Program-made: the position numbers and the translations under genes
Notes under the pieces: generated by a model
Databases searched by the model: none
What the model was told of the DNA's origin: nothing
What the model saw: only the letters and a program-made list of their open reading frames with translations
In this document: in pieces, positions 45,987-49,749 of the stretch
Layout: each line of letters starts with the position of its first letter
Position numbering within the stretch: the stretch's first letter is position 1
Assembly (NCBI GenBank): GCA_963845565.1
Contig: CAWJSJ010000001.1
Location: 448,001-512,000, forward strand
Length of the DNA stretch: 64,000 bases
Origin: an uncultured Methylomirabilota bacterium
GTDB lineage: Bacteria > Methylomirabilota > Methylomirabilia > Methylomirabilales > 2-02-FULL-66-22
Reading direction: 5' to 3'

Positions 45987-46592
45987 TCGCACCCGAGGGC
46001 CGGCGTAGTTACCGGTGCCTGGTGCGGGCGGTCGGGGAGGCCCGAACCGGCAGATACTCGGGCCGGAAATAGGGCGCCATCCCCACGAAGCCCGCCAGGT
46101 TGATCCGCCACCCACCCTCCTCGCGGTTCAAAAAACGCGGCCGCACGGCAATCTGACTCTTGCTCTCTCGAACATGCCGCAATATGAACCGGGCGCGCAG
46201 CAAGGCGATCCCGCCCTACTCGGAGATCGCGCCGAAGAGAATCTGAAGAGACATCTCCAACGGTTGTTGACCTCTCATCCGTCTGCTTGTGAATAACCTA
46301 TGTGGCGAACGACGATCGAGATTCGCCTCTGAAACATCTCGCGCCGAGGCGGCTCCGGCCTGAGGTCCCATTCCTGTAAACACATCTGCCGCGTTGAACC
46401 GGCTCTCGCTGGTTCGATCTCAAGAGAGCTTCATTTTCTCGGATAGTTATCCAGAAACCTCTTCCGCCTAGCTTTCACATCAGCCCATCTAGTGGTGGGG
46501 GGGACGTATCTGGTGCGCTTGGGAATGAAGAGGTCCGGCTTCCCCTGCTCTCGCCCGATTACTTCTCTTGTGAAAACTCTGAGAAAAAAGTG

Positions 46593-46622
46593 TTGACACG
46601 CAGGGAACACTCGATGTATAAA
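46593..46622 (+). promoter_or_regulatory. Sigma70-type promoter
   Basis: TTGACA-N18-TATAAA, ending 19 bp before ATG 46642, with an A-rich tract upstream. Confidence 0.65.
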
Positions 46623-46641
46623 TCTCAACGGATGGTGACTA

Positions 46642-47214
46642 ATGATGCTCGAAAAATTATTCTCTTCCAAAACACGTGTCGAGATTCTGCGCCTCCTCTT
46701 TTCGAATCCCGACAGTCGGTACTATGTCCGCCAGATTTCCCGGGAACTCTCACGGGACATCTCCGGGATCAAGCGCGAGCTGGACAACCTGGACAAGGCC
46801 GGCTTGCTCGCCAGCGAGAAACTCGGCAACCTTCGGTATTACAGCGCCAACAAATCTGCCGCGATCTATCCAGAACTCAAAGCCATCATTGCCAAGACCG
46901 TCGGCGTGCAATGGGCGATCGCGGGGCCGCTCGGTGGGTTGACCGGGCTGCGCCATGCTTGGATGTATTCCATGAATTCCCATCCGCCCGGCGAAGGGTC
47001 GGGACCGGTCTTGGTCCTCATCGTCGGACGGGTCGACCTCGCGGACCTCAACGAGGCGATCACGCAACTGGAGGGGAAACTGGGTCGTGAGATCAATTAC
47101 ACGGTGTTTGACGAGACGGAATTCCAGCGGCGGCGAGCGGAGGCGGACCCGTTTTTGACCGAGGTGTTTGGCGGCCGGAACGTTCTGCTCATCGGGCGCG
47201 ACGATGGCGTATGA
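46642..47214 (+). CDS. ArsR-like wHTH fused to a degenerate minimal nucleotidyltransferase (MNT) domain
   Basis: LF.SKTR..IL.L....P...YYVR.I.R, REL..L...GLL, GN.RYY.AN....IY.ELK.I..KT.G, E.KLGREINY, PFL. The GS...DxD motif is replaced by YSMNSHPPGEGSGPVLV. Confidence 0.8.
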   Translation: MMLEKLFSSKTRVEILRLLFSNPDSRYYVRQISRELSRDISGIKRELDNLDKAGLLASEKLGNLRYYSANKSAAIYPELKAIIAKTVGVQWAIAGPLGGLTGLRHAWMYSMNSHPPGEGSGPVLVLIVGRVDLADLNEAITQLEGKLGREINYTVFDETEFQRRRAEADPFLTEVFGGRNVLLIGRDDGV

Positions 47215-47653
47215 GGAGTTGCGCGAGAAGGGGTTGGTGGACGATGTCAAACCGAACTTCTCGACGGTGAGCGCCCTTATCGTGCGGGCACACAAAGACG
47301 TGGCGACGGCACGAGCCAATGCCAGTATCGACCGGGAATGGGCGTACGCGATCGCGTATCAGGGAATGCTTCGGGCCGCCAAGGGTATGATTTCGGCCGA
47401 AGGTTTGCGCCCGCGGGGTCGGGACCAGCAGCGAACGGTGGTGATGTTGGTCGATGCGATCCTCGGCGAGAACGCGCGACCCCTGGTGAATGCCTTTGAT
47501 CGGATGCGCCGGCGGTGGCAGGTCATCGTGGAGGAGGTCGGTCAACCGGTGTCACGGTATGAGGTGGAGGGCGCGATCAAGGACGCCCAGCAGTTCATCG
47601 AGCGTACGGTCGAGTGGACGCGGACGAGAAATCCTCAGTTGACGTTGCTCTAG
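47204..47653 (+). CDS. HEPN-domain protein, degenerate
   Basis: A..D..TA, WAY.IAY..ML.A, G.RP, FD.MRR architecture. Expected His and Rx4(H/Y) positions read QQRT and RRWQVIVE. Confidence 0.72.
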   Translation: MAYEELREKGLVDDVKPNFSTVSALIVRAHKDVATARANASIDREWAYAIAYQGMLRAAKGMISAEGLRPRGRDQQRTVVMLVDAILGENARPLVNAFDRMRRRWQVIVEEVGQPVSRYEVEGAIKDAQQFIERTVEWTRTRNPQLTLL

Positions 47654-47693
47654 CAGCGTCGTGGGGAGCTGTGAAAGAAAGGAGGTGAAGCTG

Positions 47694-47753
47694 ATGGCCA
47701 CCAAGAAGCCCGCCGCGAAGAAGACCGCGAAGAAGCCCGCGAAGAAGAAGTAA
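47694..47753 (+). CDS. 19-aa Lys/Ala-rich micropeptide MATKKPAAKKTAKKPAKKK
   Basis: Perfect SD AAGGAGGTGA at 47679-47688, ATG, TAA. Paralogue immediately downstream. Confidence 0.72.
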   Translation: MATKKPAAKKTAKKPAKKK

Positions 47754-47806
47754 GACGACCCGGCTCGTTTTGACTCAACGCTTCCCGTGGGAAGGAGGTG
47801 ATTGCT

Positions 47807-47863
47807 GTGGCGACGAAGAAGAAGCCGGCCGCCAAGAAGGCTGCCCCGAAGAAAAAGAAGTAA
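47807..47863 (+). CDS. 18-aa Lys/Ala-rich micropeptide MATKKKPAAKKAAPKKKK
   Basis: Perfect SD AAGGAGGTGA at 47792-47801, GTG start, TAA. Synonymous differences relative to the first copy. Confidence 0.72.
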   Translation: MATKKKPAAKKAAPKKKK

Positions 47864-47882
47864 GCTTACAGTCAAGTGATTA

Positions 47883-47906
47883 CGCTGGGGGCGGCACCCC
47901 CCAGCG
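47883..47906 (+). terminator. 9-bp GC hairpin after the micropeptide genes (terminator or 3' stabiliser)
   Basis: CGCTGGGGG-cggcac-CCCCCAGCG, with no clear U-tract. Confidence 0.5.
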
Positions 47907-47936
47907 GGACTCATACACTATTTTATATCATATCGA

Positions 47937-48028
47937 TTCGTCAAGGGCAGAATATAAATAAATAATTTTATCATTCGTTTCGTGTGTTTACGAAACTAAC
48001 CTTATGATAAAACGTAATGCTTGACGAA
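47937..48028. repeat. AT-rich segment with three nested inverted-repeat pairs
   Basis: TTCGTCAAG/CTTGACGAA, TTTTATCAT/ATGATAAAA, GTTTCGT/ACGAAAC. Confidence 0.65.
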
Positions 48029-48282
48029 ATACTCTGGCGGGGAAAACGGGATTTTTTCTCGCTTGACGTTTGATGGCTACGCGCTGCGGGTGGTAGTGCC
48101 CTACCGTTCGACCTGTCGGAATCCTTGGAATCTTCCGTATCGCCCATGGTGCCGACCGTGGGCTTTTCCTCTTGCAACAGCTCTCAGAAGAACTGTCTTG
48201 CGGGTGGTGCCCGTTCATCTGAGGCAGGACGCCGGGGGCGCATGCGACGTCTCGCGGCGGCCGAGAGTGGAGGAAGGATCCC

Positions 48283-49749
48283 ATGGGGGAGCGTTTCAGG
48301 AATCTGATCGATGGCAAATGGGTGGATTCGGCCAGCGGTTCCACCTTCGATGATGTCAGCCCGATCAACAAGACCGACATGCTGGGGAGTTTCCCTCGGT
48401 CCGATCATCGAGACGTAGACCGCGCGGTCGAGGCGGCACGCAGCCATTTGTCGACGTGGTGTCGGGTACCCGCTCGACGCCGCAGCGAGGTCCTGTGGGC
48501 GGTTGCCGAGACGCTCCACCAGCGCGGGGAAGAGCTTGCGACGTTGCTGACGCGGGAGACAGGCAAGGTCCTCGCCGAGGCGCGGCTGGAGATCGCGGAG
48601 GCCACGGCCCTCTTGTACGCCATGGCGGGCGAGGGCGTCTACGCCGAGGACGGGGTTGCTGCCCTTGGGCAGTCGGGCCCGCTGGGCGTTACGATGCGAC
48701 TTCCCGCAGGAGTCGTGGCACTGGTTACACATTGGTCCTTCCCGGTGGCTGCGTCGGTGTGGAAGCTGGCGGGGGCGCTCGCGGCGGGCAACACGGTGGT
48801 ATTCAAGCCGGCGGAGGATGCGCCCCTGACTGCCGGTCGCCTGGTCGAAATTTGGCTGGAGGCGGGTGTGTCGCCTGGGGTCATCGGTTTGGTGCACGGG
48901 CAGGGCGAAGAGGCCGGCGCCCCACTGATTCGGCACCCGGACGTGGCGCTGGTGTCCTTCGTCGGATCGCCCGAGGTCGGCCGGGAAGTGGCCATCGCGT
49001 GCGCGGCGGAGCAAAAGCAGGTGTCTCTGGAATTGGGAGAACAACTCGCGATCCTGATTCTGGACGATGCCGACCTCGAACTGGCCGTGGAGGGAACGGT
49101 CTGGGGAGGCTTTGCCATGGCGGGCCAGCGATGGCGGCGCGCGGCGCGCATCTTTGTCCATCGCAAGATCGCCAAGGAGTTCGCCGAGCGAGTCGTGAGC
49201 CGGCTGCAAGCCGTGCGTCTGGGGGACGGGCTGCTCGAGACCACCGACATGGGGCCGGTCATCAACGAGACTCAGCTCAAGCGGGTTCACGGTTACACCC
49301 GTGTAGGCCAACGCGAAGGCGCCAAGCTGCTCGCCGGCGGAGAAATCGTGAAGGAGGGCGACTGCAAGCGGGGATTCTTCTACGCGCCGACGCTGTTCGG
49401 CGACGCGACGCTCAAGATGCGGATCGCGCAGGAGGAAGTTCGCGGTCCGACCATGGTGCTCGTCTCCGTGCCGGGGCTGGAGGAGGCCGTGGAATTGGCC
49501 AACTCGGCTCGCCGCGACCTGACGGCGGTGGTCTACACGCGCGATCTTTCCAGGGCGTTCCGGGCCGTCGACGGGTTGCGGGCTGCCAACGTGTACGTGA
49601 ATGCTGCCGCCGGAGGAACGGGGACGCGACCGTCGCTGGTTGGATTCCGACAGCTGGGCCGGATCCGCCGGGAGGCCGCGGCGCAGAATCTCGACGGATT
49701 CGCCGCCTGGAAGACTGCAACACTCGATCCCTTCGGAAAGCGAGGGTAG
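48283..49749 (+). CDS. Aldehyde dehydrogenase-fold protein, predicted catalytically inactive
   Basis: N.I.G.W, E.GK...EA..E, GNTVVFKP, MGPVIN..QL, G.F..PT. PWNFP reads HWSFP, ELGGK reads ELGEQ, GQRC reads GQRW, EEIFGP reads EEVRGP. Confidence 0.88.
   Translation: MGERFRNLIDGKWVDSASGSTFDDVSPINKTDMLGSFPRSDHRDVDRAVEAARSHLSTWCRVPARRRSEVLWAVAETLHQRGEELATLLTRETGKVLAEARLEIAEATALLYAMAGEGVYAEDGVAALGQSGPLGVTMRLPAGVVALVTHWSFPVAASVWKLAGALAAGNTVVFKPAEDAPLTAGRLVEIWLEAGVSPGVIGLVHGQGEEAGAPLIRHPDVALVSFVGSPEVGREVAIACAAEQKQVSLELGEQLAILILDDADLELAVEGTVWGGFAMAGQRWRRAARIFVHRKIAKEFAERVVSRLQAVRLGDGLLETTDMGPVINETQLKRVHGYTRVGQREGAKLLAGGEIVKEGDCKRGFFYAPTLFGDATLKMRIAQEEVRGPTMVLVSVPGLEEAVELANSARRDLTAVVYTRDLSRAFRAVDGLRAANVYVNAAAGGTGTRPSLVGFRQLGRIRREAAAQNLDGFAAWKTATLDPFGKRG

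Follow-up and report, generated by a model that had tools for sequence, protein, structure and literature searches.

Two probable polylysine micro-genes behind a conserved wHTH-MNT/HEPN gene pair in an uncultured Methylomirabilota bacterium

Are two reading frames of 18-19 codons, made up of little but lysine, alanine, threonine and proline, genes at all, and if so what could their products do? The question is raised by one locus in a 64,000-nt stretch of DNA (the window; positions 448,001 to 512,000 of the forward strand of contig CAWJSJ010000001.1, assembly GCA_963845565.1) from an uncultured Methylomirabilota bacterium. An earlier note on this DNA had described two unannotated mini-ORFs (open reading frames), each preceded by an identical 10-nt Shine-Dalgarno (SD) sequence and a 5-nt spacer and ending in TAA, the pair being followed by a 9-bp hairpin. 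All of this was read directly in the sequence, as were the synonymous differences between the copies (GCC ACC vs. GCG ACG; CCC vs. CCG). The evidence given below argues strongly that the mini-ORFs are real translated genes. They lie behind a gene encoding an ArsR-like winged helix-turn-helix domain fused to a degenerate minimal nucleotidyltransferase (wHTH-MNT) and a gene encoding a HEPN-domain protein, and ahead of an aldehyde dehydrogenase (ALDH) gene. The features of the mini-ORF region are as follows.

47679-47688, plus strand: extended Shine-Dalgarno 1 (SD1), AAGGAGGTGA, read directly
Between SD1 and the ORF1 start, plus strand: spacer AGCTG, 5 nt
47694-47753, plus strand: polylysine micro-gene 1 (ORF1), ATG...TAA, 19 codons, MATKKPAAKKTAKKPAKKK, 9 Lys
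47792-47801, plus strand: extended Shine-Dalgarno 2 (SD2), AAGGAGGTGA, read directly
Between SD2 and the ORF2 start, plus strand: spacer TTGCT, 5 nt
47807-47863, plus strand: polylysine micro-gene 2 (ORF2), GTG...TAA, 18 codons, MATKKKPAAKKAAPKKKK, 9 Lys
47883-47906, plus strand: GC hairpin of 9 bp with a 6-nt loop, CGCTGGGGG-CGGCAC-CCCCCAGCG, probable operon 3' end and putative terminator
47907-47915, plus strand: tail GG(G/C)ACT(C/T)ATA, nearly invariant after the hairpin in 12/12 loci of the genus

Both peptides contain 47-50% Lys, the rest being solely Ala, Thr and Pro, and each has a mass of about 2 kDa and a net charge of about +9. This agrees with the histone-H1-tail-like polycation composition proposed in the earlier note. 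Each micro-gene carries a maximal SD, the full complement of the 16S rRNA 3' end. The 10-mer AAGGAGGTGA occurs three times in the window compared to 0.08 expected, a count reached by 0/100 shuffles. No start codon stands at SD distance from the third of these (17059). On both strands of the 5.36-Mb genome of 66% GC, 25 occurrences were counted. Among the 39 K-rich ORF rows (10-70 aa) listed for this genome, only ORF1, ORF2 and their longer-start variants are of the polylysine type. We define the polylysine micro-gene class by a strong SD at 5-8 nt, about 11-60 codons, at least 35-50% Lys with otherwise A/T/P/V/G/S, a TAA or TAG stop and a downstream hairpin; both window ORFs have these properties. 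The hairpin begins 19 nt past the ORF2 stop, with no T-run after it.

A DNA search of 40 relatives gave a match in 18 of the 20 genomes of the same genus. The gene order wHTH-MNT, HEPN, mini-ORF1, mini-ORF2, ALDH is fixed in the 12 genus loci that were fetched, and their mini-ORFs have kept an SD of the form GG(A/G)GGTGA, a spacer of 5-8 nt and an ATG, GTG or TTG start. Loss of frame, SD and start in relatives had been named in the earlier note as a result that would speak against its proposal; we looked at these, and all are kept apart from the frame of one copy. The genus peptides have 14-19 residues of the form MA(T/A)KK..KKKK, and their lengths differ in whole codons. Intact copies number 23 of 24, ORF1 being intact in 11/12 loci (14-19 codons) and ORF2 in 12/12 (15-19 codons). 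The exception is locus L002 of genome G009 (1595-1660), in which copy 1 is frameshifted by a 2-nt deletion and the copy 2 peptide is identical to that of the window; the frameshift is either an assembly error or the loss of a redundant copy. In alignment A2 of 12 genomes, mean column conservation is 0.98 for SD1, 0.89 for SD2, 0.84 for ORF1, 0.87 for ORF2 and 0.975 for the hairpin and tail, compared to 0.45-0.57 for the five spacers. Variable ungapped columns at the three codon positions are 4/16, 4/16 and 9/15 in ORF2 and 5/13, 5/13 and 7/12 in ORF1. Third codon positions are the most variable, which is coding-type divergence. The earlier claim of selection on the peptide is upheld to the extent that conservation is of the coding type; selection itself is suggested by composition and codon statistics.

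The pair of mini-ORFs extends well beyond the genus. Orthologues of the wHTH protein (at least 48% identity) were found in the following genomes of the order: f1 18/20, f4 15/15, f5 6/6, f6 1/2, f2 1/1 and f7 14/20. Genomes flagged as unpublished were counted (G050 in f4, G028 in f5, and G217 in f9 of the wider phylum), and no sequence-level statement rests on them. A strict SD/peptide pattern matched 32 of 251 genomes of the phylum, and the reversed control pattern matched 0/251. When the DNA downstream of the orthologue was read in 20 pattern-negative genomes (f2, f4, f5 and f7), K-rich mini-ORFs were present 50-60 nt past HEPN in 20/20. Two copies were counted in 18 of them by the first criteria, and the other two have a less K-dense first copy. 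The pattern had missed these genomes because the SD is GGGGGTGA or the peptide begins MAKKK. HEPN is only 34-63% identical in these four groups, yet the tandem pair follows it in every one of the 20 genomes. Together with the 12 genus loci, K-rich mini-ORFs lie downstream of wHTH-MNT/HEPN in 32/32 genomes whose DNA was read, so that the pattern search proposed in the earlier note for this position was positive throughout. For 11 further genomes, judged by coordinates only, there is a pattern match 500-650 nt past the orthologue that shares its contig and strand. The same module is present in the Methylomirabilota locus L034, with three copies, and in Methylomirabilis oxygeniifera (L060). In four Nitrospirota metagenome-assembled genomes (MAGs; L070, L062, L027 and L074), wHTH homologues of 32-46% identity stand directly upstream of polylysine mini-ORFs, with a convergent lpxC on the other flank. 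The adjacency of wHTH-MNT and polylysine genes spans two phyla. The description of the peptides as stand-alone did not hold at this locus, where they are the 3' cistrons of a conserved wHTH-MNT/HEPN operon.

In the Methylomirabilis-like loci of f7 (L145-L150, at about 1058-1150, oriented), the first copy has 23-32 aa, is less K-dense and ends in G(K/R)GC, and the second is a plain polylysine peptide. The first copy with its C-terminal Cys may be a diverged paralogue.

The earlier note had also allowed that the repeats might be part of a structured non-coding RNA; we looked for this with folding and covariation tests, which show none. No match was found in Rfam 15 at E<=1 over 46000-49000 on both strands. 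The minimum free energy of the 271-nt region gave z = +0.27, and 116/200 shuffles folded at least as well. RNAalifold on the 12 orthologues predicted only the terminal hairpin, with 0/18 compensatory pairs and a covariation term of -0.36, and it found no alternative antiterminator pairing. Apart from the terminal hairpin, the mini-ORF region is not a structured RNA. The hairpin itself is identical in 12/12 genus loci and occurs only once in the genome. In f2, f4 and f5 the loop varies but the stem core GCTGGGGG..CCCCCAGC is retained, and in f2 and f4 the hairpin is followed by a ..TTATA tail resembling that of the window.

Eleven RNA records contain part of the stretch. The Logan contigs come from four metatranscriptome runs of three studies (X1 and X2 are one study; X6 and X8 are two others).

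X1, 47608-47774: 0 differences, depth 245
X1, 47745-47864: 0 differences, depth 328
X1, 46838-47637 (MNT/HEPN): 0 differences, depth 8.06
X2, 47661-47819: 0 differences, depth 401
X2, 47790-47860: 0 differences, depth 375
X2, 46789-47634 (MNT/HEPN): 4 differences, depth 8.07
X1 and X2, ALDH contigs: 0-1 gap, depth 2.5-5
X6, 47561-47836 (bridge from HEPN to ORF2): 0 differences, depth 5.1
X8, 47435-47816 (bridge from HEPN to ORF2): 2 differences, depth 9.9

The mini-ORF contigs of X1 and X2 are 30-50 times deeper than the MNT/HEPN flank, as judged from contigs that give one depth each, without strand or ends, and whose depth is unsuited to gene ranking. A 30-50-fold step within one locus is unattainable by DNA carry-over, and we therefore take it as evidence of abundant RNA over the mini-ORFs. 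The RNA contigs have zero cover over 47876-48009, the hairpin included, and so carry no information on the 3' end. Past 47864, at the ORF2 stop, the high-depth X1 contig runs into a spacer of the ORF1 type, so the sampled strain differs there; this continuation suggests environmental strains with three or more tandem copies, as in L034 and G010. Many partial matches came from other K-rich contigs, and similar transcripts of other organisms are thus present in these communities. The depth step near 47650 was considered as a start site and rejected, being arithmetic on mean contig depths and no start-site evidence.

The abundant RNA could itself be the product, for example a sponge titrating Hfq or CsrA, with the open frames incidental. 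The high depth and the invariant 3' hairpin are in line with this, as are AAG repeats that conform to A-R-N and SDs that contain GGA, the motifs expected for Hfq and CsrA. But the region folds no better than shuffles and shows neither covariation nor an Rfam match; SD-start spacing and the start and stop codons are kept while the spacers drift; Lys codon choice tracks genomic GC and the Ala, Pro and Thr codons vary synonymously; and the layout of SD, ORF, stop and terminator recurs in phyla with unrelated DNA. We regard an RNA product as very unlikely. Functionless open frames arising by chance in low-complexity DNA are scarcely credible. AAG/GCN repeats are free of in-frame stops and can be expanded by slippage, but such an origin is contradicted by the conservation of SD, start, stop and hairpin across an order, the empty reversed-pattern control, the RNA depth of 30-50 times the flanks and the presence of just one such locus among the listed K-rich ORF rows of the genome.

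Similar micro-genes occur far outside these two phyla. A pattern scan of 185,579 species genomes for an SD, a start and A-(T/A)-K-K...K-K gave at least 118 loci. The figures in this and the next paragraph are those among the matches listed. ORFs of <=40 aa account for 99/123, and 109 of the 119 with a stop in reach are short and K-rich, with lengths of 11-59 aa and 79 distinct peptides. Going by record titles, members are found in Nitrospirota, Methylomirabilota, Eisenbacteria, Verrucomicrobiota, Chloroflexota, Dormibacterota, Acidobacteriota, Dadabacteria, several Patescibacteria groups and others. Past residue 5 the composition is K 57%, A 24%, V 6%, T 5%, P 3%, G 2%, S 2% and R 1.5%, all remaining residues making up 0.4% of 1954; acidic, aromatic and large hydrophobic residues are almost absent. 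The start codons are ATG (81), TTG (16) and GTG (12). The 109 mini-ORFs stop at TAA (70) or TAG (39) and never at TGA, compared to TAA 53, TGA 47 and TAG 20 in 120 neighbouring genes. A single step separates TAA from AAA and TAG from AAG, as would fit a peptide length that evolves by Lys-to-stop changes. The AAA share of Lys codons drops as GC rises (rho -0.53), and therefore it is lysine that is conserved and not a DNA repeat. This share is also lower than in the neighbouring genes, at 0.23 vs. 0.46, and the difference has this direction in 46 of 56 loci (p 2e-7). Avoidance of AAA fits selection for faithful poly-Lys synthesis in which A-runs are avoided; in E. coli, iterated AAA is reported to cut output more strongly than iterated AAG (PMC4363877).

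In 81/104 arrays the stop is followed, at a median distance of 24 nt, by a perfect hairpin of median 13 bp, with T-runs after it in 42 and A-runs before it in 9. The layout of SD, ORF, stop and terminator is the same in phyla whose DNA is unrelated in sequence. The downstream gene is convergent in 45/65 loci. Neighbours are constant within a lineage and different between lineages:

Nitrospiraceae: HARE-HTH upstream, lpxC convergent downstream
Moraniibacteriota: prmC convergent downstream
Verrucomicrobiota: PolB-like exonuclease downstream on the same strand
Eisenbacteria: sigma-54 activator upstream, uvrA downstream
Dadabacteria: class-V aminotransferase upstream, rho convergent downstream
Acidobacterium L063: ppk1 upstream, ppx convergent downstream

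Three of these lineages deserve separate mention. In the Acidobacteriota MAG (L063:2015-2074, minus-oriented), a 19-aa mini-ORF lies 110 nt downstream of the polyphosphate kinase 1 gene and is convergent with that of the exopolyphosphatase Ppx; as a single case it is suggestive of a polyphosphate link. In the complete genome of Candidatus Nitrospira defluvii (FP929003.1, at about 135.6 kb; L018:2014-2070), a HARE-HTH gene and a convergent lpxC flank an 18-codon member that starts at TTG and is followed by a canonical T-run terminator. In Eisenbacteria (L023, L024, L051, L058, L076, L088 and others), CTGGCACGTCCT is conserved 10-30 nt past the stop and before the terminator hairpin, and this motif resembles a sigma-54 -24 box.

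Do the peptides belong to a known family? Pfam gave no family at E<=0.01 when the ORFs were searched in extended forms of 30 aa and 21 aa, and NCBIfam no relevant family at E<=1 for the two extended ORFs and five relatives, with the reservation for both that HMMER composition filters may hide matches. A protein homology search with the 48-aa Nitrospira member scored 8000 candidates and kept none, a result that we put down to composition filtering and not to absence. The window peptides gave no hidden Markov model (HMM) match to the Hc2/Lys-Ala repeat nucleoproteins, whose Pfam family we take to be PF07382 (histone H1-like Hc2). All of ten exact relatives (20-59 aa) are absent from a collection of 15 billion proteins, which bears out the earlier statement that such peptides escape gene callers. 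No description of stand-alone polylysine micro-genes was found in the literature, with subscription journals largely outside coverage, and six peptide strings occurred in none of about 8.4 million texts. The window peptides are a new miniature variant of the Lys/Ala-rich polycation proteins, and their conserved, putatively regulatory partnership is specific to this lineage. Hc2 (HctB) of Chlamydia, AlgP of Pseudomonas and the N-terminal domain of DdbA of Streptomyces are likewise polycations built of K/A/P-rich repeats. The size of Hc2 is reported to follow repeat number (165-237 aa; PMC2848022), and the reported partners are DNA for Hc2 (PMC2848022) and DdbA (PMC3643593) and polyphosphate granules for AlgP (PMC9239181). 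In contrast to these proteins, the window peptides have 18-19 aa, about one tenth the size, and no other domain, and they are encoded by unannotated tandem micro-genes in a regulator-like operon.

A second group of tiny polycations suggests that the peptides might be ribosome-bound microproteins. The ribosomal or ribosome-associated proteins bS22, bL37, bTHX and eL41, which fill rRNA pockets, have 20-35 aa, are very positive and highly expressed, and were long missed by annotation. The window peptides are alike in size and charge, have a maximal SD and abundant RNA, and rRNA is the most abundant polyanion of the cell. However, bS22, bL37, bTHX and eL41 are Arg-rich, single-copy and conserved in sequence, with aromatic or hydrophobic anchors, whereas the class peptides are Lys/Ala-only and fluid in length (11-59 aa among the matches listed), sequence and copy number (1-3), only composition being kept. 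Aromatic and large hydrophobic residues are almost absent among the matches listed, in contrast to known ribosomal microproteins, which use such residues. The strict pattern is patchy in the phylum (32/251), no ribosomal-gene linkage was seen among 131 neighbour ORFs, and there was no Pfam or NCBIfam match. For bS22, whose Pfam family is presumably PF08213, neither an HMM match nor a conserved sequence or length was found, and a separate ORF which we take to be bS22-like is present in the genome. A ribosome-bound role is therefore unlikely in our judgement. The bS22-like ORF is a 31-aa small basic ORF at G000:C1:112957 (MGSVVKKRRKK...). Another basic ORF, of 23-25 aa with a GAGGAGGG SD, lies at G000:C2:1783858; it begins Cys/Gly and ends PAKKK.

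The operon upstream of the micro-genes comprises the following features.

46593-46622, plus strand: putative sigma-70-type promoter; TTGACA at 46593-46598, 18-nt spacer, TATAAA at 46617-46622
46642-47214, plus strand: ArsR-like wHTH fused to a degenerate MNT, 190 aa
47201-47653, plus strand: HEPN-domain protein; probable start ATG 47201 (MAYEELREKGL), longest ORF from 47168

In the putative promoter, TGTTGACA is invariant and (T)GTATA nearly invariant in 11/11 aligned genus loci, and the DNA further upstream is unalignable. A promoter scan gave 2 matches compared to 0.9 expected, and the 46593-46622 site was not among them; we believe that it was missed owing to the A at position 6 of the second hexamer. 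The wHTH-MNT protein matches Pfam HTH_5 and HVO_A0114 over residues 9-63, and its NCBIfam ArsR/SmtB score is under that model's cutoff. Its L070 orthologue (46% identical) matches the Pfam Polbeta NTase family with E 5.7e-9. We judged the MNT by the catalytic motif GS-x(9-13)-DxD and the HEPN protein by the RNase motif Rx4-6H. In alignment A1 the positions GS..ARG..SD.D read SM..SHP..GPVL in the window MNT, which has YSMNSHPPGEGSGPVLVLIVG where L070 has YGSVARGREQRLSDVNLLVVG, and no orthologue keeps both Asp. The HEPN protein matches Pfam HEPN (E 1.5e-5, 25.6 bits vs. a cutoff of 22). Rx4-6H is absent at the homologous position in 9/9 HEPN orthologues, where DRMRRR is conserved instead. Sequence searches of the PDB gave only ArsR-type wHTH matches for the MNT protein and spurious PPR repeat matches for HEPN. 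Because the catalytic motifs of both domains are lost, the pair most likely is not a working HEPN/MNT toxin-antitoxin pair and most likely forms a DNA-binding sensor or regulator complex of the operon. Type VII HEPN/MNT toxin-antitoxin modules occur in Shewanella and Aphanizomenon and have the same adjacent, overlapping order of MNT and then HEPN. Unlike them, the window MNT is fused to an ArsR-like wHTH and has no GS/DxD, the HEPN has no Rx4-6H, and the pair is vertically conserved across an order with the polylysine genes as fixed extra cistrons.

The adjoining NTase-fold gene leads to the idea that the peptides serve an enzyme as precursors or targets, for instance for nucleotidylylation by the adjacent MNT or in a RiPP-like (ribosomally synthesized and post-translationally modified peptide) pathway. 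Tandem, near-identical small ORFs next to such a gene would suit a substrate, as would the conservation of Thr3 within the genus. Yet the MNT lacks the GS and DxD positions, the conserved module encodes neither a further modifying enzyme nor a protease or exporter, other families have Ala or Lys in place of Thr3, and neighbours differ by lineage. The substrate idea has, in our view, a very slight probability.

The explanation that we prefer, and hold to be somewhat probable on balance, is that the last cistrons of a regulator operon encode disordered polycations that bind a cellular polyanion. The operon would run from the promoter near 46593-46622 through wHTH-MNT, HEPN and polylysine genes 1 and 2, as cistrons three and four, to the GC hairpin. 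The mini-ORF part of the transcript would accumulate far above the upstream genes through an internal promoter or a stabler 3' segment, and the maximal SD on each micro-gene would drive translation into Lys/Ala/Pro/Thr peptides of about 2 kDa. Since the peptides have no hydrophobic core, they are expected to be disordered and to act electrostatically. That they bind polyanions we consider a little more probable than its opposite; they may serve as freely diffusing counter-ions or condensers of DNA, rRNA/RNA or polyphosphate, by analogy with the Lys/Ala/Pro tails of histone H1, Hc2 and AlgP, minus any folded domain. The catalytically dead wHTH-MNT/HEPN pair would sense or regulate the operon, and control of the micro-genes by this pair is a tentative proposal. 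We also considered the peptides as a substitute for missing HU, polyamine synthesis or polyphosphate, and rejected this as the genome has all three gene families.

Several points weigh against this explanation. The frameshift of copy 1 in G009 implies that one copy is dispensable there. The third-position excess in ORF1 is modest, and in-frame indels may be favoured by AAG/GCN repeat slippage, which makes the coding evidence weaker. The absolute invariance of the hairpin and the ACT(C/T)ATA tail are unexplained by a plain terminator role. The contig depths have the limits given above, all high-depth RNA evidence is from one study (X1 and X2), and the promoter scan found no promoter for the abundant 3' RNA. 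The cross-phylum set is biased by the selecting pattern, which demanded an SD and M-A-(A/T)-K-K...K-K. Peptides this short may be unstable in vivo. The genome has five HU/IHF genes, spermidine-synthase-family genes and PPK1, and no missing function points to a target. The evidence for gene status consists of sequence and RNA.

A wider reading, which we regard as rather unlikely when all of its parts are taken jointly, sees the locus as a domesticated toxin-antitoxin-like module in which the dead MNT-HEPN pair has the dedicated task of sensing, regulating or buffering a polycation that is gene-encoded and dose-sensitive. Made in a burst from the maximal SD, the peptide would compact the nucleoid, ribosomes or polyphosphate and thereby act as a reversible switch for dormancy or stress. 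The polylysine micro-genes would represent a new class, shared across phyla, of polyamine-like counter-ions that are made by ribosomes and that each lineage would wire to its own regulator, here wHTH-MNT/HEPN, and the invariant hairpin with its ACTYATA tail could be the site of HEPN/MNT action on mRNA or DNA.

If the peptides described in our preferred explanation are made, many phyla produce abundant gene-encoded polycations that are missing from annotation and protein collections and invisible to trypsin-based proteomics, and gene-caller length thresholds remove a whole class of conserved genes. Beside polyamines and nucleoid proteins, such peptides would give the cell a further, tunable means of neutralising the charge of DNA, RNA or polyphosphate or of condensing them. 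The present locus offers a handle on regulation in its fixed partners, a catalytically dead MNT-HEPN pair that includes a DNA-binding domain. Experimentally reachable relatives are Methylomirabilis enrichments and Nitrospira defluvii, with its 18-codon member (L018).

The gene behind the micro-genes raises one more alternative, and the features concerned are listed here.

48070-48075: -35-like TTGATG, in the non-coding unit before ALDH
48091-48099: extended -10-like TGGTAGTGC, in the same unit
48142-48173: terminator-like hairpin GCCCATGG..CCGTGGGC followed by TTTTCCTCTT, before ALDH
48283-49749: generic ALDH, co-oriented, 420 nt downstream of the mini-ORFs

The ORFs and hairpin could be a lysine-sensing leader, an attenuator controlling ALDH by the supply of Lys-tRNA. 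Attenuator leaders (his, trp, leu and mycobacterial polycysteine sORFs) likewise have a short ORF dominated by one amino acid and then a hairpin, and a co-oriented gene lies 420 nt downstream in 12/12 genus loci. Homopolymer leader ORFs are reported to exist in the form of the mycobacterial polycysteine sORFs (bioRxiv 10.1101/834739). In the window, however, no exclusive terminator/antiterminator structures overlap the ORF end, and the co-oriented ALDH gives no sign of belonging to the pathway of the sensed amino acid; it is generic, falls under every NCBIfam equivalog cutoff (best 411 bits vs. a cutoff of 770) and has no lysine link. ALDH is preceded by conserved -35/-10-like boxes of its own and by a terminator-like hairpin (48142-48173) separate from that of the mini-ORFs. 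The downstream gene of the class is mostly convergent (45/65 among the matches listed), and the Nitrospirota pair of wHTH-MNT and mini-ORFs faces a convergent lpxC. The non-Lys positions are restricted to A/P/T/V/G/S, which a codon sensor would not need. A leader function is highly improbable on these data.

On the minus strand, TTGACG-16-AATAGT (47944-47917) was rejected as a conserved promoter, its second hexamer being poorly conserved in the alignment. About 23 nt past the GG(G/C)ACT(C/T)ATA tail, an invariant CGTCAAG (47939-47945) stands inside a stretch of 33% GC; the spacing of tail and CGTCAAG (window 47907-47945) does not fit a sigma-70 promoter on either strand. Between the mini-ORFs and ALDH lies a conserved non-coding unit (window 48070-48173) whose boxes and hairpin recur in most of the 12 genus loci and have no Rfam match. 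This unit could be a small RNA or an attenuating leader of ALDH.

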